Source of the DNA: Tubiluchus corallicola
Lineage: Eukaryota > Animalia > Priapulida
Direction: 5' to 3'
Length of the DNA stretch: 64,000 bases
Assembly (NCBI GenBank): GCA_030141605.1
Contig: JAQGDQ010000071.1
Location: 127,787 to 191,786, forward strand
How positions within the stretch are numbered: the first letter of the stretch is position 1; each line of letters begins with the position of its first letter. This document shows, one piece after another, positions 1,258 to 64,000 of this stretch. The notes beneath the pieces were generated by a model, which was not told the origin of the DNA, ran no database searches, and saw only the letters and a program-made list of their open reading frames with translations. A program made the position numbers and the translations under genes.

Positions 1258-18315
<17,058 letters not shown>

Positions 18316-18584
18316 ATTGTGGTTTTTCGCCTGCTATCAATCTGCACAGGAACAATTACATGACTGGAAAACGGCGTTTCTTCTTAAATTATTGCAAAAA
18401 ATTGAAAAAAACTAACATGGTTGTACACGTGTGTGGGCAGACTGGGCCTCAGACCTCTAGCGTACTGTTCCTTTTGTAAAGTATTTATGAAAAAAAACAG
18501 ACAGTCTAGTGCAACGGAATCATTAAGTCAGAGACCTAAACTTCGATGTAGTCAAACTTCCGCCACTGTTTTGGCTGTTGATGT

Positions 18585-18635
18585 AATAAAGTGTTGTTTG
18601 GAATGTTTCGCTCTATCGGACCTTGTTTAAATAAA
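18585..18635 (+). terminator. Candidate polyadenylation signals of the NDST-like gene
   Basis: AATAAA at 18585-18590 followed by GT-rich gtgttgtttgg, and a second AATAAA near 18630, about 270-320 bp after the stop. AT-rich context makes chance hits likely. Confidence 0.3.
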
Positions 18636-20106
18636 GTTTAAATCGTCAATTGAACTATATTAGCTTTTTATTTGATATACATAATGAAATTTATAAAATA
18701 ATTAAGTTTACAAGTTACGCATTCAACAAAATACGAGAAGGTCAACAATTGTAGGGTTTATAGGTCCAGAACTAGGGCATACCCTAACATTAACGGCGTA
18801 AATCTGAAAATCACAGCAAAGTGTATTTTGCAATGCTGAATGAATATCTAGAATTACGGATTAAATCCATTTAGTATCGCAAAAGTGTTGAATTCGATTA
18901 TGTCATATTTTGCATTGCCACCTGTGTACAGGTTCACAGGTCTGCATCCCGAGAAAGATTCAATATTATCCGCAATTAACCAAAAGCAGTACTTTGAACC
19001 AAACTTATATCGAAATTTCGTTTATAGAAAACAAAAACGAAAATTTAAAACATGCGCATAGTTATTATTACATTACAAAAACATTTCCCAAGTGATATAT
19101 ATACAAGGATTATATTAATTAGAACGATTACATGATAATTAGAATGCGAAGAAAGAAAAATAGAGGAAAAATGCAACGTAAGAGCCATTGGTAAACGTTA
19201 AGTTAATGACAACATCAAAACTAACATGAATGAAACAATTTACACAATCACTACAAAATACAAATATAATGACTACATACCGAGAACTGGCTACGGATTG
19301 GAGTGTTATAACGTAATATTTTGTCACTTCAAGCTAGCTAGAAAATAGATGCAAGATTACAACTATATATACCTTCTGAGAAAGAAGCCTATATGCAAGT
19401 GATTACACGTCTGATTGAGTACAAAACTGGTTTACATAAAGTTAAATGTAGACTATGAAAACAGATTTACTAGTTCTTGACAACAAAGTAAATCACTCTA
19501 CGCACAGACTAATACATAATTAAGTAAAATACACGTAAAACAGCTAACTTTAGTGAACTGATGCGGGTTCTTGGTTTACTAACGTGTCACGTGACAGTAA
19601 CTAGATCTTTAAAAGATTCTGCTGCAATTAGTGGGTGGTTCCTCCCTTACTTTTTACAAAATGTCTGGACTAGTAATCTTCGTGCTCCTTACACATACAA
19701 GAAATAAAGTCTTGGGAATCTGGATAATTTATCCAAAAACTGTTACGACTAAAGACAGATATTAATTTACCGTAGGACATTGCTTTATCAAGGTTTTGCT
19801 TTATGTAACTGGACCTTACACAACATACAAATGCAAAGAAATACTAACATTTCAGTGCGCATAATATTTTTTGTGTTAACTCAGTTTTGCTTTATTTTCT
19901 ATATAGGCTAGACGAACAGTTTAAAAGCCTCAGTGTGAAAACACTAAACCATGAAAACAGAATACAAAAAAAAAACAAAGAGCCCTCTTGCTTCATTTTA
20001 TTGTAGTTTTACAGGAATCGATTTCAATACATTTTACAAGCACACGTTTAAATTTAATAGATTTTATTACCACATCTAGGAAACTCAATAAGCAATTGAC
20101 GCATCT

Positions 20107-21114
20107 CTATTTAAATGGCTTCTTTCTTCCTATGAAATACACTCCTGTCTCATGGCACTTTCGCTTTAAACTTTCTAAAGTTGGTTCTCTATTAACAAAA
20201 ATGGGTTCAAATGCATCTAAGAACTTTTCCACCACGAGTAATGATATTCTAATTGGGTGAAGTTTAAACGATCCCAACACACAGTTGCCTTGTTCTGGAT
20301 CTTTGTACCATCGTTCATGCCAGATTATTGTGCCATTGTCTTTCAATAATGTGTGGGCGTTGTGAAGAAACAATAGAGCATCCTGTACGTGTTCTATTAC
20401 ATTGATACTAATGAGCGTATCGAATGTACCAGGTTTAGTGAACGTTTCTGCTGGAGAGGAGACAATAGTTGTTGGGTAATTAAGAATTTTACCATTTTTG
20501 TATGTACATGTTTTTACGTGTTTCATGTACAAATCAGCCATTGGTTCAACAAGTGTGACGTGACTCACATTTACTTGTTGATTGTCTTTTAAAATGTAAT
20601 AACTTTGAGTAAATGGACCGGCGCCAATTTCTACTAAGTTACCCAGGTGTTTTGGCAGCAGTTTGTAACCATGAAAACCTTCTACATGTTCATTTGCACG
20701 GTCACCTTGAGGTCTTTCTATAGTCCATCTACCAAATTCCTTCTGCTGAGCAGCTTTCCACAGGAACGTTGGCACTTGGACTATACCCGTTTGTGGATTC
20801 ATAAAACAACTCGCCGACAAAGAAGTTTTGGGCATTTGTTTGTCATACGTTAAAGATTGCCTTAAATTAGGGCACCGGTTCAGCTTGTTGTCAGTAATCA
20901 AAAGCTTTTCACAACATTGTGCTCCAGTGTATCCAGGATGGCAAAAACAATAGTTAAAATACCAACTTCCATGATGATGACAAGCACATCTGCTGCCAAT
21001 AAACGATTTCGCGCTATTTTGCCATTGATTTTTCAAAATCACGCGGAAAACTGTTAGTAACAACAACGTGGCAGGTAACTTCAATTTTGCCGTGTTCCTC
21101 AAAAACGAATGCAT
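20107..21114 (-). CDS. Intronless type II membrane protein with an EGF-like Cys module and a class I SAM-dependent methyltransferase domain, 335 aa
   Basis: Single open frame; first ATG at 21114 (ORF track starts at a GTG, 21135). Hydrophobic anchor LPATLLLLTVFRVIL; EGF-like CACHHHGSWYFNYCFCHPGYTGAQC; MTase motif I LVEIGAGPF, beta-2 acidic TLVEP, and FDTLISINVIEHVQDALLFLHNAHTLLKDNGTII (Methyltransf_11/23-like). Confidence 0.85.
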   Translation of the reverse strand: MHSFLRNTAKLKLPATLLLLTVFRVILKNQWQNSAKSFIGSRCACHHHGSWYFNYCFCHPGYTGAQCCEKLLITDNKLNRCPNLRQSLTYDKQMPKTSLSASCFMNPQTGIVQVPTFLWKAAQQKEFGRWTIERPQGDRANEHVEGFHGYKLLPKHLGNLVEIGAGPFTQSYYILKDNQQVNVSHVTLVEPMADLYMKHVKTCTYKNGKILNYPTTIVSSPAETFTKPGTFDTLISINVIEHVQDALLFLHNAHTLLKDNGTIIWHERWYKDPEQGNCVLGSFKLHPIRISLLVVEKFLDAFEPIFVNREPTLESLKRKCHETGVYFIGRKKPFK

Positions 21115-23929
21115 AATTTCGTTAAAAATGAACACTGTCTAGTTTTGCATTCAGCTTCATTTTGGATTAAAATACGTGAAACATAACTTTGAAGATAAAT
21201 GACAAACGGGAAAACGTACGCCAATTATTCAGAAACAACTCAGTTCTCTTCTTTTCCTACTAGAATCATTAATCAAAGGATCATAAATCAAGTTTTAATT
21301 ATAAAAAGTGCACAAGTTCGACCGCAAAACCTTAAAAGGTGATTAGTTTACTTTGATTAAGCAGTGTACAACAAACTAACGTTAATGATCCATAATAGTA
21401 TCACGGTAGAAGCTAATTAGAAATGAACTGGGCAGGAACTGAATCAGACTTGAATGATTGCGTGAACTCCGGTGTGCGTTATAAGTGTTCGGCTGTAGCT
21501 TCTTCCTTACCACTGCTTCACGAGACAAGTAATAAGATTAAGAAAATAGACACTTTGTCAATAGTAAAATCACTGTAGTGGCTGCGAATGTAGCAAATGG
21601 TACTGAAAAGAGTGCAGCTTTTCTAACGTGTTGGCTATAATTGCTTCCAACTCGTCTGTGTTAAGTTTGATAAATAGTTGTGCGCTAAAAATGTACCTTT
21701 ACGGGTAAACTTAGAAAATAGTTAAATTTCAACATTTTGCTTTAAAATCTGTAGAAGACGACACCATTACCTTCCCCGACATGCACGCGATTTTACACTG
21801 CTACCTGCTAGGTCATAAAATTGTAGCTTTTTCGTACATTCACATGGTAAAGGACTCCACAATTATTTAAAAATACATTATTTCTCTTGAATCTTCACGG
21901 TATTACGTAAAATTAACCTCTTTACTTTCTATTTCTGAACATAATCATCGCATTATGCTGCGGGTTAGAAAAATGTGCGACATTTTGGGTGCTTAACTAG
22001 CTCCATGCAGCGTTGCCATGCAACAATCGCTCAAAATCACAAGATTCTAACAATGTCTTCTGAGTATAGAACTGTATTGTACAGTACTTATATGCTGTAT
22101 TGCGTTGAAATACTGTACCATCTAAACCGTTACTTGCTGTACATTTTTATTTTCTACTGTTTTTTTTTCACTTTAGTTTCCGCCTTTGTTGTTACTAAGT
22201 TCTCATAAAAATGTTTTTCGCCACACTTTCGTGCAGTCGTGAAAAAAATAATACGATTTTCAACAAACAACAATCGTAAGAAATAACTTGTGTTCTGTTC
22301 CGCTGCATGCAAAACCACTAAGTGCACGGGTTTGGCATTACTGGTTGCCGTGTTTCATAATCACACTGTTATTAAAACTTGGCTGTTTTTCAGTTAATGG
22401 TTTTGTTTTGGTTATCGGTTCAAAGACATGTGGTGTGGTGGGTTTCGGTTAACCTATTTACTACTAACACGTTCGTCATTAGGTTTTTTTTGCAGCACTC
22501 ACTAATGGTGCAGTGTAGTGAAACTAATCAAATCTTTTTTTACCATCTTCGATTGATATTTTGCTCAAAATACGTTTTTCAAATTTCATGTTTGACAAAC
22601 AGTCTTGAAGGACTAGTGGGCTAAGCTAAAGAGGGATCAGGGCCTACGGCATAATTATTACACTTTTTCATTCTATTTAAAGAATTTTCGAGTGTGTAGC
22701 TAATATACAACTGTTTTTGGAATGTTTGCTTCTATCGAAAAACTGTATTTGGATTCGTTTTTTAGTTTTAATATGAAATAGCTTTAAGGTGTGAAAGTCT
22801 ATCCAGGCTGTGCACTGATAACTTTTTGTAATCAGTCAAATAGCTGATTGGCGATGGGCAAATGGCAACATGAGAAAATTATGTAATTTACAGACCCCAC
22901 AGTAGACTATTGTGTATTATGAAAGTATCACGAAGCATATTATACGTCGACAAATGTTGGTATATTCTATAGACTCCATTAGCTGAAACAAGGGCATGTG
23001 AATGGAGTCTAAGTAACAGTTTTGCATTGCAGCACACGTCATTTATGTCCAATTAATAATAATAATTATTATTCCCATAGCAGCATCATATTACTGTGTT
23101 TATGAGATAATCTGTGTTTAGTCTGTCCTTCAAGTGGTGGACTAGGTAAAAATTTGAGCTTTGTATGCATGCATATTTCTGCATCTGTATAACTGTATTA
23201 TTATTTCCATATTATGTTTTTGAATAAAAGATTTAAAACAATAATTAATCTGTTTTAGGCAGCATTGATATAAACATTTAACACTAAATACATTAAGTCT
23301 TCATAAATTCAATTAATAATTTTTTATTCAAAACAACTAAATACATATCACTTTAAAAGAAAGTACCTAAACAAAAATTACATTAGAGTTCATGTTTTAT
23401 GTCTAAAGAAAAACTATCATTTATTTAGATGAACTTATTAAATTTGTAACTATTATGCTAAAAAATTCGTGCTTCACTAATTGAGGCCTTTTGAATATAT
23501 TATTGCACGGACAAATTTACAATTAAGTCATTTTTCAAATATAATTTAAATAAAATAGTTAACTAAGCTAGGTCTATGTTAAGCTTGTGTAGTCTTTTTA
23601 GACTGATCATGTATAAATTTTATGTCTATATACCAAGGCACACAGCTAATTTTATTGCAGTATAATTATTAAAGAAACTATAATTTCACAACTAGTTTGT
23701 ACTGGAATTGACATACGTACATATTGATATATCTATTATTACCATGGCCGGATTTTGTATGCCCCTGGGCACAGATACTATGCGGCCCATTTCTTAACCT
23801 GCCATGGATTTATGACTATATTTGAAAATACGATAACGTTGCTGTAAAACGTTAATACAAATCATTGCAATGCTATTAACGAATATTGTGATGCAATAGT
23901 TAATGTTAGCATCAAGCTCAGTCAAAATG

Positions 23930-24605
23930 CCAAAAACTTGGCAAAGAGAACAAAAATTTGTAGAACCGGCCCACAGAACGTCCTTATTTTGCCATGACTT
24001 TGGGTTGTTGCCGGCATTGTCAGTGATATTAGATGCCGTTTGCGAAATCAATACGCCACATTAAAAGAATGAAGTCCATATGCGTAAACTCAGGTTTGAC
24101 GAACATGTCCAAAATAATAACTCTTCAAAATCTAATCTTTTAAAAAAATTAAGTGCAATGAAAGGCGACAATAATCTTATTGCCACTTGTGTTGAAGGCC
24201 TAAAGATGAAAATGAGATTTCAAACTCATTTTGCTGAAAAACTTTACAACATCGTTGTCTATGATGCTAACGAAAAGCAGCTTTTAAATAAACGTTTTCA
24301 GGATAACATTGAACATACTAACAACTTTTTGTTTTCAGTGAGTGACATAGCTACAACCATTACTCACCTAAAATCTGTAAGTGCGACGGTTCTGATTGTC
24401 TCTCTCTCCTGATCATTTAACAATGGCTCACATATTTTATTTATTTATTCAACTATGTTGCTCACCAAGATATTTAGTCATAGCACAGTTCCTAACAATT
24501 TCCTTTATTCTAACAATGCACATAGTTAAAGATAAGCGAGGTAATTTGTCAGCCATATCTAACTACAGAGCCATTGCACTGACTTCTTCTCAGCAAACTA
24601 CTAGA
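23930..24605 (+). mobile_element. Degenerate LINE ORF2 fragment (pre-RT/RT start)
   Basis: Frameshifted remnants SVSDIATTITHLKS..SPDHL..IVKDKRGNLSAISNYRAIALTS resemble the NYRPIAL region of LINE reverse transcriptases. The left boundary is approximate. Confidence 0.7.
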
Positions 24606-24793
24606 TTTGTTAATTTTGAGTCAATCATCAAACTTGAACTTCGATTTGAATCCTTGAATGGTGGACTAGGACGTGAACTTGGACTTGAGCTAGGACCCTG
24701 AAGTTTTCCACCTCCTGGCACCATTGACTAGCTGTTGTTTGCTTGATGATTTAATGCTGGTTTTATAGTTACATATGCGATCACTTAATATCA

Positions 24794-27700
24794 TTAATTT
24801 TTAGAAAATGGTGCCATTTCGTAAACTTTGCTAAGTTTTTGTTTTGTCCTACATTTTTTAAATAAATATGTTTTATTTGCATAAAGTATTTTGGTTTCTT
24901 GCAGAAATGTGTTGTAGAGTCTTGCGTTTACAAGTGAGAGTCTGCAGTCTTTTTCCTTACATATTTTGTCCTTGCCTGCTATTCCTTCATGCACAAGAAA
25001 CGTATTGTCTAAAACATGAAAATTGTAATCCAGTAAACACATCTGAAAAGTTTGTTGAATTTTGTTAAATCCTCTTCCTCGAAATCTTTCATCGTGCATT
25101 GGCTCTTTGTTGTTTCCTGCAGTAAAAAACGTTTAGCCTGTAGCAAAGATGAAGTGTTTTGAAATAGTTGGCAATGGTACTTGATTTCTTTTACATATTT
25201 TTAGATGAGACAAGTCCTTTACTATTAGTGATATAAGTAAGAATAAAATTAAAGGAAAAACCGACACTAGAACAACATTCAGTGTGTTTTAAAAGTAAGT
25301 TAAAAATATTGAAATTACCACACTATACATACGCATAAACTGCCTTGCTTAAAAATGCGAAGGACATTTAAATAATTCTTATCTCCAGCCAAATGAACCT
25401 CGCTGCATATTTTAAAAAAATGACGTAAGCTGGTGGACAGCGTGAACGCCATGATGGTACGCCTAGCAAAACTTCTGTAGTTTACGGAGAAGTTCCGCTG
25501 TTTTAGCGCTGTGTTTAATTAGTTGTCGGATCAATTAGCAAAAAAATGCTTCCACAGCTTTAATACACAAGATTGTACCTTACTGTACAAGTACTGTACA
25601 AGTAATTCACAAGTACTGTATAATGTGTACATCATCAATTTGCAGCTTTTTGTTAACTTTCTGATTAGCATGCAATTCTGCGAAGGTATAGTAGGCTTTT
25701 GCAATTTCAGTTTTATCTTGTTAAAATAGTTATTCTCTTATATTGTCGGAGTTAGTGCTGGGTGTTATACGATCATTGGTAACTGCTTTTCATTAAATTA
25801 GTGGAATAAGTGATTTAGTAAGAGATTCCGGGTAGCTAAAGTTAAAATGCATTTTCATTGAGCCCTGTTTAATAAATACAAGTATGCAATATAACAAATA
25901 CACAGTAATTCTTCGTACCTATGTACACAGGCTCCCAGAAGGGTGGAATCCACTTTGTTTTACAGACCTCTGCAAGATCGTTTGTTACATTGATTCTTCT
26001 CCACCAGTCGTAACAAGGTATCAAATGGCACAGTCGGCACATGTTCTAAAGTAGGTGAAACTAGTTGACAAAATTTGTGATGTGATCAGAAACTGAATAA
26101 TTCGCAAACATTAATTACAGAATTAGACCTTGAAATGACATTAACCTGCTGCTTGAAGGTCATAATTTTGATTTAATGAATTGTCATTGCATAGGTCAAA
26201 GATCAGCCAATCTCCTGTCAACTAGTACCATTCAATTCGCCTCATCGATACCTTCCCGTTTATGTACTGCAAGATAGTTTTTCCCGACACTGGAAGCACT
26301 TGTTTTCCTAACCCATATATTGTACCTAGTGGGGTAGGTGGTCAATCAATCTTAGCTTATTCAATTATTCCCAAAGTTTCAAGTTAAATATCCATCACAG
26401 ACTCTAAGTGAAGTGGCACAACCAGCTAGCTAAGGGCTGCAGCAGCAGAAAGCAACCGGGTAAGTAGAACCGCGATAGTCTACAGAGTAAAATTTTGTAA
26501 AAAATCTCAGTTTAACTTTTCATCATAAGTTGTAAGTCAGCTAGGTCAACAAGTAACAAAACAACTGAGGGCATGCAGAAAGCGCGCTTAGCTCCTCCAA
26601 AGGATTAACACGCTTTTTCTTCACCGTTGAGTGCCTGCAAACAACAAAGAACACTTGTGAAGCCTCGGCAGCCTCTGCTGACCACAAGTACCGAGATCGA
26701 TTCGTGAATGATTTCAATTTAACCTGAGACCACGTTTTCGCTGACCCACATCACTTTTCCACAAATTGTACATAATCTTCAAGAAGCCCATTGAATATCA
26801 CACTAAATTAATTTTAACTTTACTTAAGTTTATAATTTATTAATGTTTTCTATTGTTATTAAATTGTTATTGTAAAAGTGTACTAACAGCACTATGGAAC
26901 TACTATTATGGAAGTACTAAATTTGAATACTATTTTCAATTTTTTCGGCATGTTATTTAAGATGCCTCTTACAGTGGTACAATCTTGGAAGACGAGAATG
27001 AAATTCTGACTTGGGCAAGTAGGATGCATGGGACGGAAAACTGTGAACTAAAAAGATCGACAGACAGTTGCACAAACAGCTTAATGAAGCTTTCTGTCAT
27101 GTCTCGTTTCGTCTCGTTTTGTTTCACCACACCTCTCCTCATCTGATCCATTTTAACCAAATATCTGTAAGAAATGCCCAAAAAGCTACAAGAAGATCTA
27201 TGATTTTCGTTTTACCTCATGAAATGGAACAGCCGCTTTGTTATTAATCAGCATGAGCAATTCTGTTTTTGTGTTTGGTACTGGTGTCCCTGGAGCTAAT
27301 TCAAATACGGGAAGCACATAAACGATATTTAATGTTGCATTTACATTAGACTTGTCAAGCATTTTGAAGAACTTTTCCATAAGTCTTGGAGTTGGTTTCA
27401 GTTCCACATCCATTAACAAAACACGTTCTGTGTAAACAGCACGACGTGCTGTATTACGACCCACATTTACAGGATACGGTCCATATTGTGACATCTCAGG
27501 ACCATCAACAGGAGGCACCGTTAAATCATAACATGTTAAATTAGATGTGTTTTTGCTGTGTGAAATTGTCGGTATTCTATTTGAAGGAAAAAACAGAGAC
27601 ACCGCAACCTTATCTAAAAACCGCCAATCACATTTGCGATACAAAAGGATTCTGTCAATTGTAAATTCGTAGCTGTTTCCTGGCACGTACAGGGCTGCAG

Positions 27701-28121
27701 ATATTGGACCATCAAATCTTTCTGCTAAGTCCAGCAAATGATGCATATATTCCCAAGAGGTTTGTGTTGCTATAGACAGGGTCCTCGTGGAGTTAAATCG
27801 CTTGTTTGGCAGAATAAAGTTGATAACTTTAGTATAAGAAAGTACATCGTGAGTAACAAAATCAGGAAACTTTGTTATAATAACATCCGTCGTATTTCCT
27901 TCTAATATAGTTAAGGGTTGAACTTGAAAAAGCCGATTTAAACGGATTTGAGATGTTGTTTTGCTTGCGTTTTCGTATTTTATAGCTTTGTGGACTTCTT
28001 CCGACACCAGTGATGTATTTGCCAATTCAAGGTAGTCTAGTAACATGTGTCTCTTCTGATAAAACAGAATAACAACACCGATCATCAATATACAGACGAA
28101 CCTACGTATCACTCGCTGCAT
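24794..28121 (-). CDS. B4GAT1: Beta-1,4-glucuronyltransferase 1-like (B4GAT1/LARGE-type, CAZy GT49), 3 coding exons, 451 aa
   Basis: Exons 28121-27216 (ATG; TM FVCILMIGVVILFY; SIATQ, RFDGPISAALY, YPVNVGRNTARR, LLMDVELKP, VYVLPVFE, VPFHE), 26045-25919 (MCRLCHLIPCYDWW..WEPVYIG) and 25116-24794 (EPMHDERFRGRGFNKIQQ..FHVLDNTFLVHEG, TAA). Phases 0 and 1 join correctly with GT-AG. The symbol denotes family likeness, not proven orthology. Confidence 0.88.
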
Positions 28122-28991
28122 GTTTCTAGTCTCCAAGATTTAATTGTAGACATACTGAGTGCTGAGGTACCCAAAGAGATTACGAGCATTTTTGTTACCA
28201 GGCTAATTCTTCACAATAGCGCAGCTCCATTAAGTTTCACTTTTACAGCATTTAGTATCGGGTAATGGTATTGATGATGGCCAAACAACGATTATCAACG
28301 GGAATTATTCACGATGTAGTTAGTCATCAAAACTAATGCGCAGAAATAGTGAGCGCTGAATGCTTTATAGATTTATGCACATATTTTCTACAAAAACAAT
28401 TTTCCCTAAATATTGAAAACTATCGCCAACAATAACTTTATTATTATTAACATGATTTATTTTCGAACACACATGTGCAGTCAAGTTACATAAGTGATTC
28501 AACTAAAAGCAATTGGTAGATTAGTAGTGAAAGTAAAATAAATTTTAAACGCTGACGACAACAACAAAACGCAAGCACGGATATTATTTACATACACGAG
28601 GACAAAGCAACTAATTTAAAAACATACCACGTATTCTAATATTTCTCTCAATTGATACCGTCATAAAAAATTAAATTTCCGGTTTACAATACATAATATT
28701 CAATCTTTTGCTAAGCTTATTGTTGCTGGCTGCCTCGAACTTAACTCGCGTCTTTTTACAATTTTTACAAGATAATACATCTAAAATATCTAAATGCATT
28801 TTCCAGGGTAACATTATTTTCTATAACAATTTTATACAAGTTGAACCCCTTTATTGAGTTAACGTCATACATCGTATGTTTGGCTATAAAGTTAATTGTC
28901 GAGTTACTACTATTTTTACATATTACATAGAATTTTAAACTGTTTATCAAAGTGCTTACTCGGCTGAACGATACCAACAACATGGGGCAAA

Positions 28992-30110: not shown

Positions 30111-30578
30111 GTAATATCACAATAATATTTATAATATTCTGTAGTTCATGTGATTTATTTTTAATGTTTTATTTGTTTGTAACACTTCTGTATACGGTAG
30201 TCAACTGATTTTTGAATTGTTCCTAAACGTGAAAGCACCATGAGTATGTATGTGTAACAAACCTGCGCACCTTCCTAATCAAATCTGACTGTTTGAAGAA
30301 TCTTCCTAATAGTCTTCCTAATAGTCGTTATATACGTAATAACACTGTTCATGTAATAACGTATCCTGCGTTACGTGACTCTCTGGCAGTTCGCATGCAG
30401 GATTAATTAAACAAATATATGAGTCTATGTTGACCAATACTATGTTACTACAGCAGAAACAACCTTTTTGTATATTAAACGTACTGGTGCAGTCTGGGCT
30501 GTTTCACAAATAGTTCTTCTTGACAAAAGTCGTATAATGGTAACAGTAATTTATTTTTGTTTAGGTTACACGATCAAA

Positions 30579-42031
<11,453 letters not shown>

Positions 42032-45118: not shown

Positions 45119-46177
45119 ATGCGAAATGTGCGAAGCAAAGTCGTTGCTGTTAGTTTATGCATGGTCAGTTTATACTGTCTAAGCCAAATTTTAGAAATAG
45201 GCAAGAAAATTGAAAAAAAGAATTTCTCAGTCAGTTTTTCATGGCAAAATTTCACTGTAAATGTTGAGTTGCAGGACCGGAATCAACGCTTTCACCTCCA
45301 ATTAGCAGTCCTTACTTACAACAGACCGTTGTCATTGTTGAGGTTGCTGAATTCGTTAACTGTTGCTGATTACCAAAACGACAACGTAACATTAAAAATA
45401 TGTATAGATAGAAAAATGCAGAACAATCTTGTCTGCAATGAAACCATATCTATATCTAACTCGTTCATTTGGCCGCATGGAGAGAAGCTGGTTCACGTTC
45501 ACTCTAAGCATGTGGGTCCATATATTCAGTGGTACGATTGCTGGAAACCGACAGGACATTCAAATGATTTTGGATTGATTTTAGAAGACGACTTAGAACT
45601 GTCGCCATATTTTTATCTGTGGCTGAAACCTGCACTTTTGTTTTACCAAGACAACAAGGACGTTGGAGCCGTGTCACTGCAGAGGCCAACACTTGTGGTG
45701 AAGATGAAAAAGGGACGCATGTTAAAGAAGAATCCTCTGTGTGCAGAGTGCAAAGATTCTGCATTTCTCTATCGCTTACCAGGATCATGGGGTTATGCCC
45801 CTATGCCAAAAGTCTGGATACGATTTCGCGAGTGGGTGTTTGACGTTTTGAAAAATCAAACCTTTGTCCCTTACATTAAAAATGAAAAATTTCTTGTTAC
45901 TAATAAGTGGGTTAATTTATTCCACCGAAAGTCAATGCCAACTTCATACTTTCTATATTACAATGATATAAACCATCTTTACACACTTTATAGTAATCTC
46001 CCTTTCAACAGAACTCTATCGTGCAACAGAAGAGAACCAGGAATGCATTATAAAATTAAAGGCCAGTATGCTCCTACTTGCGACTTTAAGCCTCTGGACA
46101 TGTGGATTGAAAGTTTTACTTCTTTTCCAGTCAAGCCTTTGAAACTAAACTGGGCAGCAGAACTAGAATTACCATAA
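45119..46177 (+). CDS. Intronless type II membrane GT-A fold glycosyltransferase (GT2-like, uncharacterised family), 352 aa
   Basis: First ATG at 45119 within the 45068-46177 ORF. Signal anchor VVAVSLCMVSLYCLSQIL; LAVLTYNRPLSLLRLLNSL, LKICID, WPHGEK, LILEDDLELSPYFY (DxD-type EDD motif), GSWG. Confidence 0.85.
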   Translation: MRNVRSKVVAVSLCMVSLYCLSQILEIGKKIEKKNFSVSFSWQNFTVNVELQDRNQRFHLQLAVLTYNRPLSLLRLLNSLTVADYQNDNVTLKICIDRKMQNNLVCNETISISNSFIWPHGEKLVHVHSKHVGPYIQWYDCWKPTGHSNDFGLILEDDLELSPYFYLWLKPALLFYQDNKDVGAVSLQRPTLVVKMKKGRMLKKNPLCAECKDSAFLYRLPGSWGYAPMPKVWIRFREWVFDVLKNQTFVPYIKNEKFLVTNKWVNLFHRKSMPTSYFLYYNDINHLYTLYSNLPFNRTLSCNRREPGMHYKIKGQYAPTCDFKPLDMWIESFTSFPVKPLKLNWAAELELP

Positions 46178-46510: not shown

Positions 46511-46759
46511 CTTTATCGCTCAGTATTAAATGTGTATGAAATTAACAGTTTTTTACATGATTATGTTGTTTCCCAGAGCAAAAACAAAGCATGATTAAAA
46601 TATGCGCTTGTTATTATTATGGCAACATCATAATAATCTTTACAAAGACAAAAAATGTGGGTGCTTTCGACCAGTATGAAAACGACGAGGAAAATAAATC
46701 GACTAGAACAAGTTAAATCATAACGTCATAATGTAATGCGAACCTATACTTGATAAATA

Positions 46760-48700
46760 TGAACGCTCCAGATCTGCTTTCCTATCGTGAAAGGTGCCAG
46801 AGTGAGGTATTTGAAGATATGAAGGTTTCTCGAACTAGTTTTAAGCTTGCCTCCAGGAATGTCAGTGCACAAGAATTGTCCACTCATAATGATAATTTTG
46901 CTCGTAATTTATTTAATGAGACACTTTATAAGTTTTGGAGAAAGATTAAAACTTGTTGTAATAATAATATTCCGCTCCCTGACAAAATTGATGATGTGCA
47001 TGGTGGAGGAAATATTTGTAAACTCTGGAAGAGGCATTACGAGCCAAATAATTCAGTGTCAAATAATAAGTTAAATAGTGATTGCGAACAGGTAGATATT
47101 CCAGCTGGTGGTGAACCTGTGTGTGTAATGTATCAGAAATATGAGCTCTATTAGATCTCTTAAACGACATAAGACATATGGGCTTCATTGTATTGCTGCT
47201 GAACATGTGATTTTTGCTAGCTATAGAATTTATGTATTGTTGTCTCTGTTGTTCACTGGTATGTCTAACCACGTATATGCACCTGCTGTTATTACTGACT
47301 ATGTAATTGTACCTGTTATCAAAAACACGAGTCTTGATATAACGGATAGCGATAATTTCATACCAATAGCTTTATCTACAGTGTTTAGTAAAATATCACT
47401 TTGCATTCGAAAAGGTATATAGCACTGAATTATATATATATATATATATGCAACTGAAAAAGACACTACATACTTATAACAATAACTGTAGTCCTACATT
47501 AATGTGTCTAATTTGACGCCAGTAAGGCATTTGATCGCCTGAATTCATACAGGCCTTTTAAGAAACTCACTGCTGTTGGGTTACCAGTTTCAATGTTGTC
47601 TATGCTGAAATATTGGTAAACTTCACAGCGGGTATGTGTTCGCTGGGACAAAACTTACTCTGATTATTTTTCTGTGTCAAACGGCCTGAGACAAGGTGGA
47701 ATTCTATCTCCTTTGCTTTTCGCAGCCTATATTGATGACCTCTCAAAATATCTGTCGTGCGAAGAAAGTGCATGTTGCCACATTGGCGAAAATGCAATCA
47801 GTCACTCATGTATGCAGACGACTTATGTCTCGTAGAAAACTTCTTACGGTATGTGAAAAATACGCTGTTGAAAATGATATCGTTTTCAATGTAAAATATA
47901 CGATGTATATTTGCATCTATTTTTACCCCTTAGCTTCCGGCATGTTGTCCCTGGAAGGGTTTTCTGTTTGGCAAAGAAGTTAAAGTTAACCATAATGAAA
48001 AGTACCTTGGCCATTATTTGAGTAATGACTTAAGTGATGATGCTGACATCTTGAATCAGCTATGATTAATTTAAATAATAGTCAATTGTATTATTAGGGG
48101 ATTTGGTAACTGTTCTGCACAAAGATTTATTGTTCCAGTCATATTGTACTCAGTTCTACTGTTCTAGCATATAGGTGAAATTAAATTGCACAAAATTCGT
48201 AAACTTAGATCTGTGTATAATACTGCTGTTAGAAACTGTTTTAATTATGAATATGGCACTAGAGCTTCGTATATGTATGCAATGAACAGTATTCCACATT
48301 TAACTGTAATTCTTCTTATAGTATCTGGTCAAGAATCAACGAAAAAAGTGATAATTTCATTATTAATGGTCGTGTTAATGTATCTGACATACGATACAGT
48401 TCAAACTTCGTCTTGCACTGGTCGCAGGTACTTTTACCAAGTTCAATTATATAACCTGTGTGCATACGATGACTTTTACTTTGTATATAACTTTTTACCC
48501 TAATATCTAATCATATGTAATTTTTTTAGTTAAAGATTTTCAACATTGTGTGCTGTAGTTTAAATTTTATTGTATGTGTGTATATATTTGTATATGACAT
48601 TTAGCTGAAATAAGCTGATCAATCAAAATTAGAAAAATAAATTGTCTGTGTTTATGTATTTCATCTTGTATTTTATGTGTGTCGTAGAGTAAATAAATAA
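46760..48700 (+). mobile_element. Degenerate LINE ORF2 (RT) relic between the two single-exon GT genes
   Basis: Frameshifted pieces FWRKIK, IAAEHV, IVPVIKN..DNFIPIALSTVFSKI, GLRQGGILSPLLF..YIDDLS, YADDL and KYLGHYLSNDLSDDADI. Many stops and frameshifts. Confidence 0.85.
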
Positions 48701-49860: not shown

Positions 49861-50901
49861 ATGAGACAATTAAATTTTAAGTCATTTCTTATTTTTTGCT
49901 GTTCATTTGTGCTTTTTTACATTGCATTTAAGGAATTTTGTGCGTATAAAAGACTTGACAAATTTGCAAATACGGAAATAGTTTATAGCAACGAAAAAGA
50001 ACGTGTAAGAGCAGCGAATGGAACAACCAAAGAGCAAAAATCAAGTGAGATGTTTAAAACTGTTAAAATGCAAAAAATTATGGAAATGGTCAACAACGTC
50101 GAGAAAACTGGGAAAATTTTGCACGTGGCGATGATCAATGAAGGCTATCTTCCATTAACACACAACTGGTTGTGTAATACGCAGATTCTTGATGTCCATG
50201 ATCAACTGCTGTTTATTGCAACAGATGAAGTAGCATATACTTCATTACAGAAATCGTCGCCGAAAGTAAATGTTTTTAACTTGCACACTTTGAGCAAACT
50301 CAACGAAAAATACACATTTGACACATGGAATTATAAATATTACTTACTACTCAGAGTAAAGTTTTTGCTGGACTTACTAAGGCACAACGTTTCTTTTGTA
50401 CTTTTTGAAACAGACAGTTTGTGGTTAAGAAGTCCAAATGATCTTATAAAAAACTATAGTAATTATGATATCATTAGTGCCCAATTTAAGGGAGTAAATT
50501 TGAAACAACAAAAATATACAGTTGGTTACATTTTTCTCAACTCAACAAATGAAGGCATTAAAATCTGGAGTGAAATGATAATTCGTTTAGAAAGCGAAAT
50601 CAATAATACTTATGAACAAATTATTCTCGACAATTTGTGTAAACAGAAATTTTCTTCAGCCAAATGCACATTGCTTCCATACCAGTATGTTACTGATGGG
50701 GTCTGGTACAAAATGAATCTTAGCATGAGGGCAAAAATTGTTCCTAATCCTTACTTAATAAATAACAACTTTATTAAAGGAATACCTCAAAAAATGGCTA
50801 GGGCAAAAAGATATGGTCATTGGTTCTTGGACGAGCATGCAAAGTGTAATCTAACTCATGTAAAGTATGTAATGCAAAGATTCAAAATTTCTGTGCAGTA
50901 A
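49861..50901 (+). CDS. Intronless nucleotide-diphospho-sugar transferase-like protein (PF03407/GT77-like), 346 aa
   Basis: ATG-started 346-codon ORF with TM FLIFCCSFVLFYIAF; MINEGYLPLTHNWLCNT, LLFIATD, RVKFLLDLLRHNVSFVLFETDSLWLRSP, GYIFL, EQIIL, INNNFIKGIPQKMARAKRYGHWFL. This matches the recalled pattern of this family. Confidence 0.82.
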   Translation: MRQLNFKSFLIFCCSFVLFYIAFKEFCAYKRLDKFANTEIVYSNEKERVRAANGTTKEQKSSEMFKTVKMQKIMEMVNNVEKTGKILHVAMINEGYLPLTHNWLCNTQILDVHDQLLFIATDEVAYTSLQKSSPKVNVFNLHTLSKLNEKYTFDTWNYKYYLLLRVKFLLDLLRHNVSFVLFETDSLWLRSPNDLIKNYSNYDIISAQFKGVNLKQQKYTVGYIFLNSTNEGIKIWSEMIIRLESEINNTYEQIILDNLCKQKFSSAKCTLLPYQYVTDGVWYKMNLSMRAKIVPNPYLINNNFIKGIPQKMARAKRYGHWFLDEHAKCNLTHVKYVMQRFKISVQ

Positions 50902-59900: not shown

Positions 59901-62879
59901 TCATCTTTTCTAGGTATTCTAGAACAGTCACAAACATTCGTTGCGCGTCTTTGCCTTATTGTTAATCAGCGAAATTTGTTTGCTGGTTCCATCCCACATA
60001 CTATTGTCTAACCATGAAACAATTCTCTCATTTAAGTTCTAGTGATGATCCCTATTATTGCATTTAATGCGTAGAAGCTATTTTCTCTTTTCAGAGCTGT
60101 GAAGATGTTGATGTTCAGGAATTATTTTCTATGACCAGTGTTACTACTACTCCTTTAGCTAATCTGTTATCTTTCTGAGTGCTCTTCACTACATTCACAA
60201 TCTAGATGTCTATGCAAACACTTATGATAGTAAGTATGATAATTTAAACTCCGTTACATCGAATCCTGATTCTAACGAATTTAACGTTTTCAATTTGCAC
60301 ATTTTAAAGTTTATAAAATATTTGCTAATGTGGCTGACAGCCCAGTAGTTTTTCTCAACCGTCTGAGATCATTAAAACTTTATGATAGAAACAGTATAAT
60401 TAGATTCATTAAAATAATTAAGCAACGCTGCTTTTGTTAACGTCTTGTTTACGAATATTCATATTCTTTATAGTTTATCTTTTTTTTATTTATTCCAGAA
60501 TTTTTAATTTTAATAACTTAAAATTATAACTTTAAAACTGATAGACTTTGAATTTGATTTTCAAACATTTGTTGTAATTTTTAATCTATGTGCATGAGGT
60601 GTCGTTTTAAGCTTTTTAAGCATTTTGTCTTTTGTTTTTTTGAACAAAATTTAATAAGCGAATTCCTGACACGTTGCGCCCCTGTTTCAGGAATTCGCTT
60701 ATGTATAAGCGAAGCCAGTGTTTTACTAGCCCCTTTTTTAGTTCTGTTCAGTTCAGTACTTCGTTGCTTCCACTAATATGGTTGTAACAGTTTTTATCAA
60801 CTAAATAAAACTTACGTTTCTTTAACTTTAATTTATCGCTTTCGAGTTTACTCTGCACCAAATACTATTAAAGTAAAATCTTTTGAAGTTCCTTTTTCCA
60901 TTCCTCAATAGTTTTTTTGCGCATAAAAGGTGTTGCAATCAGATTTGATTTAAACAAAGTATTTAATGAAGTTTGCTCTTGACCCATAGATTGGCTTGTT
61001 TCCTGCATAAATTAGCCAGTTTGTTGACTAACTGTACACTGTCACTTATCAGACGTTATTTTCGAACTCAGCAGTATGACGTTTGCTAATGTCGAGCTGT
61101 TCATTTAAGTGTGGCATTATGCGTATATGAGCAGTTAATCCTGTAATAATTTCAGCTGTTTGCATGCGTATCAGACTCACTACTGTACTCCTGCAAATCT
61201 GCCTGTTCGCGGGTTCTTTTGATAGACTGACTGGTTGCAGCTACGTTTGAGCTGGCAAGGTAATATTCTAATGTAGATAGCTTTTCAGATTTGCTAATTT
61301 CAATGTCACTATCTAATCTCTCTTTTCCACTATTAACATTATCAGTAATGAAGAAATTTTCTGTTGGTTGAAAGACACTATCTGCGTGTTTGCTTATTTC
61401 ATTATTTTATTGAGCTGTGGCATGTGTTGGAAAATTTGTTCGCTCACTAGAAGAGGTACTATTATGCTTCAATAAATCATAGTCTCGAAATATAGCTTTC
61501 TTTCGAAATGGGAGTTTTCTGCTTGAAATCTCTCCAGGTTTTTCTCTACATGTATCAATTGAATCAGTATTTCCCAATCTTCATTTAAATTTGCTAATCA
61601 TCTAGATGTTGAAATAAAATTCGTCCAATAAACGCATTTATGATTCTAATATGCACTGGGTCAATTACAGGAGTCACAAAATAATTTTCCGCCCATGGCC
61701 TAATTGGCTTCTTATCAGATAATTCGGCTCTTTTCTTTCTTAAAAATACTTGTTGTCCCGGTGTAAATTACACTGAAATTTACCTTATCTCTACGCTTCA
61801 TACGCTACTTCCGAGCCATGTGCCTAGCCCTAACAAATGTTTAATGTAATTTATCAGATTTTGCGTTAGCTGATCATTAGGATTATAATGTGTCGGTCTT
61901 AATATATTATCCATAGCTATTGTTGGTGTTTGAAAATAAATTAGAAAGAATGGAGAATTGCCATTGGCAGAATATGGCATTGTACGCATGGAGACTATGG
62001 CGAATGGGAGAAAGTCTAGCCATTTTGAAAGTTCATCAGCACATAAACAACTTAACTGATCTAATTATGGTCTATGGACTCGTTCACAACGAGAAAGTGC
62101 ATTATTAAGGTAGGGAGGCGAGAGAATTTGATAAATATTAAGGTGTTTCAATGACTATTTCATGATTTCACTGCAGTTCTCAACCACGCTGTCCATCAGA
62201 TGTGTCTAGCTACACGCATAACGAATTACATAATTATTTAAGGCGTTAGATGTTATTTGATATTATGTTATGTTGATCTGAATCATACTTGCTCACAGTT
62301 AACAGATAAAGTTTCCTCAGTCTTGCATAGCAAATTGTCTTCTGCTATAAAGAATCTCCCTATATCTTGATATTGTTGTTTAGTGTTGAAAGGCCAGGCA
62401 AGATTTTCGATAATTTGAGCTAAATGTTCATCCTCAGCTTGCCATTTTAATACGAGGTTGAGATTTATTGGGAGATGTTATTTCTGTGCATTGGTCTGCG
62501 TTTGTCCATTTAACTGTTCGTCCCCTAATTATGGAGTGTCAGTATTTTCAGTATTATTTGACGGTGCCTGATCCAGTGCATCTAAGACATCTGGTGTGTC
62601 TGTTGCATCTTGCACATTCAATATTGGATCGACTTCTTTCCAAATATCTTCTTGCTGTAAGTCCAAAGGCATTATAGTTTATCTTTCTATCATTAATTCA
62701 TGTTCATTTTGATCAAAACACAGGGTTTCTTGCTCTGTGCTTTCGTCACTTATGTAGTCTTGCATTTCTGAATCGCGTTGTTTGCTTTGTATTAGTAGAC
62801 TCGGTTCGCCTTTTTAACTCTTCCGGGTGTTTCTGTACCTTTCCAGTGGTATTCAGTAAATCAAATTATCTCTGATACT

Positions 62880-64000
62880 CTTGAAAAGTGGCTCCAGTCG
62901 ATGGAGTTTCCGGTACTGGGTTCATAGCTGCTACTACGTTTTATTATCCAGGTATGTAGTACAAAGTAAAGTCATATTCAGACAATGCCATCATCCAACG
63001 TTGCAAAAGACTAGATCCCGGGTAATTTCCCACGAAAAGTTAGCTTAAAGGTTATTTATTGCAGTAAACAAGATTTTGTGAACCGTAAGGATAGCTTTTG
63101 AACTTCCTTATGCAAAAGCCTCTTTTTGACTAATTGGCCATTTTCGTTGAATGTCTGATAACGAGTGTGGGAAGTGCGCAATTGGTCTTGCAGTTGCTTG
63201 TTCAAAACTCCTGAGATAGAAAAATTACTTGAGCCTGTATGCAGAATATAAGGCTTACTAGGATCCGAAAATCAAAGGATCGGTGTCTTAATCAATGCTT
63301 TTTCAAGTCACAAGAAGCTTAATTTCTTTTCGAGTTCCATATAAATATCCGTCCTTTTCTCAACAATTGCAAAAGTAGTTCAGCTTTTTCAGCAAAATCA
63401 GGAATAAACATATAGGAATAAATTTCCTTTAAAAGTTCACCAATAAAAGCTTTTACTATGTTTTGCACCGCTGTTATTTTATCTGTTTCTGTACGTATTG
63501 CATCTGAGGTTACAACATAGTCTAAATTATCTACTTTCTTTGTTAAAAATATACATTTTCGCCGGTGGCATTTCAAATTAGTTTGCCTAAATCTATTGCA
63601 AACATCTTGCAAATCTTTGAGACGAGTTCCTATGTCTGGACTACAGACCAGCAATTAATCAACAGAAGAATGCAAACGATGCCTCCTACCTTCTGTTATC
63701 AAATCTTTAGCTAAGCTGTGATCTAATTTAAGAAATGCTGACGGTGAATTTGTAGCTCTAAAAGAACATGCATTGAATTTATATATGCCACCATCATGAA
63801 TAAGAAAAATCGTATAATCTCTGGAATTCTCTTCCATAGGAATCTGGTGAAAAGCACTCACAAGATCTAAGAGTTTCTCTCCTTAAACGATTTAGAATAC
63901 TATCGATAGGAAGTGGTTGTGCGTTGGCCTTGACTGTTCTTGAATTTAGAAAATGAAAATCCACACATATTCTTAAATATTCTTAATCCACAAATACTAC
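62880..64000 (-). mobile_element. Degenerate Ty3/Gypsy LTR retrotransposon pol fragment (RT and RNase H), runs off the window end
   Basis: SAFHQIPMEENSRDYTIF..GIYKFN..ATNSPSAF, KCIFLTKKVDNLDYVVTSDAIR..DKITAVQN, FIPDFAEKAELLLQLLRKGRIFIW, and downstream PIAH..LSDIQRKW and LQRWMMALSEYDF. Stops and frameshifts present. Confidence 0.85.

Follow-up and report, generated by a model that had tools for sequence, protein, structure and literature searches.

The window analysed here is a 64,000-nucleotide stretch of the genome of the priapulid Tubiluchus corallicola (contig JAQGDQ010000071.1, positions 127,787 to 191,786 of the forward strand). Its minus strand contains an open reading frame (ORF) that combines a short predicted membrane anchor, an epidermal growth factor (EGF)-like module and a class I S-adenosylmethionine (SAM) methyltransferase domain. 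We propose that its product is probably a lumenal glycan O-methyltransferase, likely anchored in the Golgi, which would act on a sugar in the product of the neighbouring glycosyltransferases. There is good circumstantial evidence for such methylation of glycans in the secretory pathway. The gene and its parts are as follows:

20107..21114, minus strand: ORF of 335 amino acids (aa) with anchor, EGF-like module and class I SAM methyltransferase domain (single frame, Pfam, fold model)
21034..21078, minus strand: predicted signal anchor, residues 13-27, behind a basic 12-residue tail; weak, with Arg24 inside (hydropathy)
20911..20988, minus strand: EGF-like module, residues 43-68, with Trp at the third canonical Cys (sequence, family profile)
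20116..20817, minus strand: catalytic domain, residues ~100-333 (family conservation, fold)
20605..20634, minus strand: SAM-binding motif I, residues 161-170 (E162 and G166 present in all 189 rows)

The protein belongs to a family of 638 representatives (50% identity clusters, E 0.001 or better), in which fusion to glycosyltransferases has occurred repeatedly. Among the 150 best of these representatives, all 31 of at least 430 aa were scanned for domains; 16 of them carry an extra non-EGF domain, which is a glycosyltransferase in 13 cases (10 GT64, one GT77 only and two under the curated cut-off) and TylF, Methyltransf_24 only or WW in the other three (one each). A glycosyltransferase Pfam domain was also found in 10 of the 11 homologs of 588-2000 aa. 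The partner domains comprise GT64, GT77, GT32-like, GT8, RXYLT1_C, GT1/GT2, TylF and Methyltransf_24, and the fused forms occur at five separate places in the family tree. Four homologs join the methyltransferase to PF03407 (GT77-type), and the GT64 partners presumably include N-acetylhexosamine (HexNAc) transferases. One ORF of 2,111 aa (L126:3795-10127) unites the EGF-like and methyltransferase parts (28% identity, E 1e-35) with a homolog of a second gene of the window, located at 45119 (29% identity, E 7e-29); it also includes one or more additional methyltransferase domains and several regions resembling glycosyltransferases. On a giant-virus-like contig, L068:5568-8993 encodes an anchored, Mytilus-like fusion of GT64, Methyltransf_24 and the methyltransferase. 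The same contig encodes a Ras-family GTPase and a SET protein, and TylF and Stealth-like genes are neighbours of the fusion.

Clustering with glycan genes was likewise observed. Scanning of 61 hand-picked ORFs around 10 distinct phage or bacterial loci revealed a glycosyltransferase or nucleotide-sugar enzyme no more than 8 kb away at eight of them, and at the 24 longer of 80 metagenome loci (66 ORFs scanned) the fused forms adjoin further glycan genes in four cases out of five. On the large phage contigs L002, L004, L007 and L010, a block around 8001 places GT2, GT1, sugar epimerase and radical SAM genes beside the soluble enzyme. One unannotated type of ORF adjoins the methyltransferase at both L005:8728-9387 and L118:5306-5911, where no Pfam glycan genes were found.

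The catalytic domain is well defined. The Pfam models Methyltransf_12, Methyltransf_23 and Methyltransf_11 match over residues 157-264, each above its curated cut-off, the AlphaFold2 model built from 62 sequences (mean pLDDT 93) adopts a seven-strand Rossmann-like class I fold, and all Foldseek and VIA matches are class I methyltransferases, forming a flat list (top Z 15.9, root-mean-square deviation (rmsd) 3.6, 204 aligned). This bears out the class I domain proposed earlier in a reading of the letters alone (hereafter the sequence-only reading). Motif I is intact: E162-x-G164-x-G166 is conserved, and E190-P191 provides the acidic position after strand 2. Further residues conserved in the family are W119, E126, W130, D138, R139, H143, Y196, N238, E241, H242, H286, P287 and R289; motif I and the Trp, Glu, Asp, Arg, His and Tyr set are kept in phage and eukaryote-type members alike, and this set may form the acceptor site. 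As the match list is flat and identities to solved structures do not exceed 19%, the fold settles the class of chemistry without specifying the acceptor or the choice between N and O. The PDB and BFVD match lists contained no outstanding match to a known sugar methyltransferase, although a weak or absent match there excludes nothing. The Pfam models TylF, Methyltransf_24 and FkbM do not match the protein itself and were found as partners or neighbours of its homologs.

The ORF runs from an ATG at 21114 to its stop in one uninterrupted frame of 335 codons on the minus strand, as the sequence-only reading had stated, and the genomic setting given there was also confirmed: the last exon of the heparan sulfate gene NDST, on the plus strand, ends at 18315, and 1,791 bases (the reported 1.8 kb) separate its stop from the ORF, the two genes being convergent. 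The GC content at third codon positions (GC3) is 0.35, compared with 0.31-0.40 in flanking host genes, and AATAAA occurs 41, 107 and 213 bases past the start of the stop codon. The description of the gene as intronless is based on DNA only. Intron read-through of the hydrophobic run was examined because an acceptor-like TTACTAACAG lies inside it, at 21051-21060, within the anchor codons. Across the 3.7 kb that separate the ORF from the adjacent GT49 gene, the search for an upstream ATG exon carrying both a hydrophobic anchor and a donor site was negative, and the alignment of the homolog P0106 spans residues 6-94; the single-exon model was therefore retained as a provisional one. In the family, a single open match of at least 190 aa was obtained at 63 of the 80 metagenome loci, phages included. 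A fusion of the ORF to the GT49 gene was considered and rejected, as there was no candidate and GT49 terminates at its own stop. A search for transposon-like ends flanking the gene gave nothing beyond short chance-level repeats. The RNA run yielded seven short repeat-like pieces (19487-19545) and covered no gene across 12480-28200, and is thus uninformative on expression.

The anchor, the EGF-like Cys module and the lumenal placement suggested by the sequence-only reading each stand in part. The basic tail is followed by a hydrophobic run, which sits in a modelled helix (residues 8-39, AlphaFold2), but this run is weak and contains Arg24. The EGF-like module has six cysteines (Cys43, 45, 56, 58, 67 and 68), the family profile matches the EGF repeats of teneurin and reelin, and EGF_Teneurin is present in many homologs; on the other hand, the third canonical position is Trp and no Pfam EGF model matches the protein at E 0.1. 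An N-terminal hydrophobic segment (19-residue Kyte-Doolittle mean of at least 1.6) was found in 59 and an EGF-like motif in 48 of the 84 full-length non-phage homologs, while neither occurs in any of the 35 members of a soluble phage-type clade. Cys278 and Cys320 tend to occur together (both in 21 rows, neither in 157, one alone in 6; the rows are not independent). The family-wide segments and the co-occurring cysteines suggest a lumenal placement, even if the query's own anchor is marginal. The protein has two N-glycosylation sequons, and inspection by eye, with no predictor run, found no canonical signal-peptidase site just behind the hydrophobic stretch.

We hypothesize that the short anchor would hold the enzyme in the Golgi in a predicted type II orientation, with the catalytic domain in the lumen and the EGF-like module serving as a disulfide-bonded stalk. 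Imported SAM would bind motif I, the conserved Trp, Asp, Arg and His would hold the sugar acceptor, and the hydroxyl of a sugar freshly added by a neighbouring glycosyltransferase would receive the methyl group.

Several observations weigh against this proposal. The anchor is marginal, since its best 19-residue Kyte-Doolittle mean is 1.61, whereas the four neighbouring glycosyltransferases reach 1.83-2.53. Most GT64 fusions form one clade and are thus not independent, the same applies to the loci L002, L004, L007 and L010, which have one gene block in common, and P0098, the nearest fused relative of the query, carries a WW domain instead of a glycosyltransferase. The L126-type fusion occurs once in 158 loci, and the GT77-type protein of the window shows a weak likeness to the fused GT77s (E 2e-7 to 3e-4) and none to P0147. 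Stand-alone eukaryote-type homologs have glycan neighbours in 2 of 10 independent contexts, where flanks are short, and the neighbourhood counts stand without a neutral baseline of class I methyltransferases. The solved structural matches, at no more than 19% identity, are small-molecule, peptide and lipid methyltransferases. Finally, the material retrieved contained no measured activity for any member of the family.

Some of these points would fit a secreted or non-Golgi methyltransferase with a non-glycan substrate, or a protein with its N-terminus encoded by an exon that escaped detection, the neighbourhood then being incidental. The weak anchor, its internal Arg and the acceptor-like motif within it are compatible with this explanation, as are the eight of ten stand-alone eukaryote-type contexts devoid of a glycan gene and the top structural matches, which act on heterocycles, peptides and phosphoethanolamine. 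We consider it unlikely, since fusions to glycosyltransferases lie at five positions of the tree, no candidate for an upstream coding exon was found and, judged by eye, the hydrophobic stretch is not closely followed by a canonical signal-peptidase site. That the gene is silent, decaying after acquisition, or an assembly contaminant is highly improbable: the family is indeed patchy among named animals, but the 335-codon frame is intact and keeps the family's invariant residues, its GC3 lies between the extremes of the host genes on either side, it is positioned between multi-exon animal genes, and AATAAA signals follow its stop.

Other explanations retain a lumenal glycan enzyme and change the acceptor group. 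Methylation of an acidic group, i.e. a uronic acid carboxyl (giving a pectin-like methyl ester) or a sugar phosphate, seems rather unlikely. The basic residues R139, H143, H242, R268, H286 and R289, identified by their conservation in the family, would suit an anion. The nearest same-strand gene is GT49, which is glucuronyltransferase-like, and methylphosphate is reported on Dictyostelium glycans (PMC6994554); however, glycan methylation in invertebrates is reported chiefly for Man, Fuc, Gal and GalNAc (PMC6935376). The sequence-only reading had favoured sugar methylation of the cluster product, for which the fusions and neighbourhoods across the family argue, and had raised the amine freed by the NDST deacetylase as a possible target. 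This last part lacks specific support. In such a scheme the enzyme would N-methylate glucosamine in the manner of NodS after NodB, yielding an N-methylated heparan-type chain. The methyltransferase is the gene closest to NDST, EXTL3 lies about 9 kb away, HexNAc transferases are presumably among the GT64 fusion partners, and DUF2334 genes, which we take to be deacetylase-like, are located near homologs in the loci L086 and L093. NodS, which appears among the Foldseek matches (rmsd 3.6), is reported to methylate N-deacetylated chitooligosaccharides (PMC11681206). Nevertheless, NodS ranks 34th of 50 structural matches (Z 13.7, rmsd 3.0, 169 aligned), with unrelated enzymes above it at Z 15-16, and neither the NCBIfam NodS model NF041650 (E 0.01) nor the Pfam NodS model (E 0.1) matches the protein. 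No NDST domain was found among the fusion partners and neighbours scanned, NDST itself normally sulfates the amine, and N-methyl glucosamine is not mentioned in the 12 matches listed out of 35 from a literature search. N-methylation of the NDST product is therefore very unlikely.

O-methylation of a sugar placed by a neighbouring glycosyltransferase thus remains our preferred explanation, and the window offers several candidate partners. Besides the methyltransferase, five host genes were recognised in it, and each encodes a glycan enzyme:

4749..18315, plus strand: NDST (heparan sulfate), multi-exon, with its 5' end beyond the mapped left limit (domain and protein matches)
24794..28121, minus strand: GT49 (B4GAT1-like) glycosyltransferase, at least two exons, the nearest same-strand gene (Pfam)
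30537..42031, plus strand: EXTL3 (GT47 + GT64), multi-exon (domain and protein matches)
45119..46177, plus strand: anchored GT13/GnT-I-like protein, single frame (look-alikes; homolog fused to the methyltransferase in L126)
49861..50901, plus strand: anchored nucleotide-diphospho-sugar transferase (PF03407, GT77-type), single frame (Pfam)

As far as comparative sequence analysis can indicate, the best candidate partners are the GT13-like (45119) and GT77-type (49861) genes rather than NDST. These two single-frame glycosyltransferases are favoured because of the L126 fusion (one case) and the family-level GT77 fusions, whereas no NDST domain was found among the partners and neighbours scanned. 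The six consecutive recognisable host genes over 4749-50901 are all of glycan type, an operon-like grouping in an animal. The 45119 protein is GT-A-like and has no Pfam match; its Atlas look-alikes are a nameless cluster made up mostly of molluscs (0.98) and clusters of GT13/GnT-I. EXTL3 has diverged to an unusual degree (branch 1.35; 37% to the best named match), and its long branch left the host phylum unplaced in an EXTL3 tree. Among 126 short frames, the remaining matches are exons of these genes or reverse-transcriptase remnants. Retroelement-like remnants lie at 16871-17605, 39756-40034, 46732-48503 and 61800-63982, one of them in the last NDST intron, and three of the four give weak RVT_1 matches. 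Another NDST intron feature is a tandem repeat unit (6168-7241), which yields repeated open frames.

Sequence searches for the family and its range, as proposed in the sequence-only reading, placed the protein in an uncharacterised family ranging from phages to animals. Named members come from bdelloid rotifers, Mytilus, Nannochloropsis, Mastigamoeba and marine protist transcriptomes, most sequences being nameless; the named animal matches are limited to the rotifers and Mytilus. The family also occurs on the giant-virus-like contig and, in a form devoid of both anchor and EGF, in large phages. In the unrooted tree (234 domain sequences, reduced to 189 rows at 80% identity), 35 rows lacking both anchor and EGF form a clade (support 99) whose loci are mostly large viral contigs. 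A close match was found at one of 57 bacterial-genome loci, the remainder being generic methyltransferases. No family match was obtained in cultured phages or in PHROGs, and a viral scan with P0120 and a metagenome scan with the single protein gave nothing. The query clusters with P0001 (53% identical) and P0098, apart from Mytilus; a single clade of query and Mytilus-type rows was rejected by the approximately unbiased test (p-AU 0.001), the group having been picked after the first tree. Separate acquisitions and an ancient origin followed by losses both fit this tree.

The enzyme appears to work like known plant and viral glycan methyltransferases, yet it falls outside every family tested. 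It shares with other class I methyltransferases (Pfam Methyltransf_11/12/23) the Rossmann fold, motif I and Z scores of up to 15.9, but its family differs from the solved chains (at most 19% identity) in having an anchor, an EGF-like stalk and lid motifs of its own at the N-terminus. The plant Golgi polysaccharide methyltransferases (DUF579 GXM, QUA2/QUA3 and CGR2/3) resemble it in its proposed role, the methylation of glycans in the Golgi with imported SAM, for which a candidate Golgi transporter has been described (bioRxiv 2021.07.06.451061). Unlike them, the query has no match to DUF579 or other plant-family Pfam models at E 0.1 and has an EGF-like stalk, and no land-plant names were found among the named family matches. 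NodS is similar in its class I fold and in using a sugar acceptor after a deacetylase; it is a cytosolic bacterial enzyme, and the structural rank and unmatched NCBIfam model given above set it apart. The chlorovirus PBCV-1 enzymes A064R (domain 3) and A061L are class I methyltransferases, one of them glycosyltransferase-fused, reported to O-methylate a newly added sugar, which for A064R domain 3 is rhamnose (PMC9614988), the same logic as in the fusions of this family. Neither name appears in the list of 50 BFVD matches. The Mytilus and Nannochloropsis proteins annotated 'EXT2/EXTL3' (Methyltransf_24, methyltransferase and GT64) contain the same domain, with 38-42% identity for Mytilus; they are uncharacterised, named for the GT64 part only, and represent the separate, GT64-fused branch. 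We found no literature describing this methyltransferase family or the glycan gene cluster, in a search that covered few subscription papers.

A more far-reaching suggestion is that the gene represents, as its founding member in animals, a new family of glycan methyltransferases common to phages, giant viruses and protists, taken up by animals several separate times, and that the 50-kb cluster (NDST, GT49, EXTL3, GT13-like and GT77) makes a methylated, possibly heparan-related surface polysaccharide. This is a tentative idea, which we regard as doubtful.

Methylated glycan sugars are described in molluscs, planaria and nematodes (PMC6935376), and also reported in echinoderms, while they are reported to be absent in vertebrates and targeted by innate defence (PMC6272458). 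The premise of the sequence-only reading that the animal enzymes are poorly defined agrees with papers from 2019 and 2023, according to which those of C. elegans were still to be identified (PMC6422873, PMC7614267). Such activity in animals is not unknown, however, since the isolation of a sialate 8-O-methyltransferase activity from starfish dates back to 1998, as indicated by a title cited in PMC6994554. The family probably gives no general explanation for methylation in nematodes or snails, because its named animal matches are so restricted. The T. corallicola gene nevertheless constitutes a compact, expressible candidate with nominated partners for animal glycan methylation, the enzymes of which are largely unidentified. 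If our proposal is true, a function would be assigned to several hundred sequences, the misnamed Mytilus genes included.
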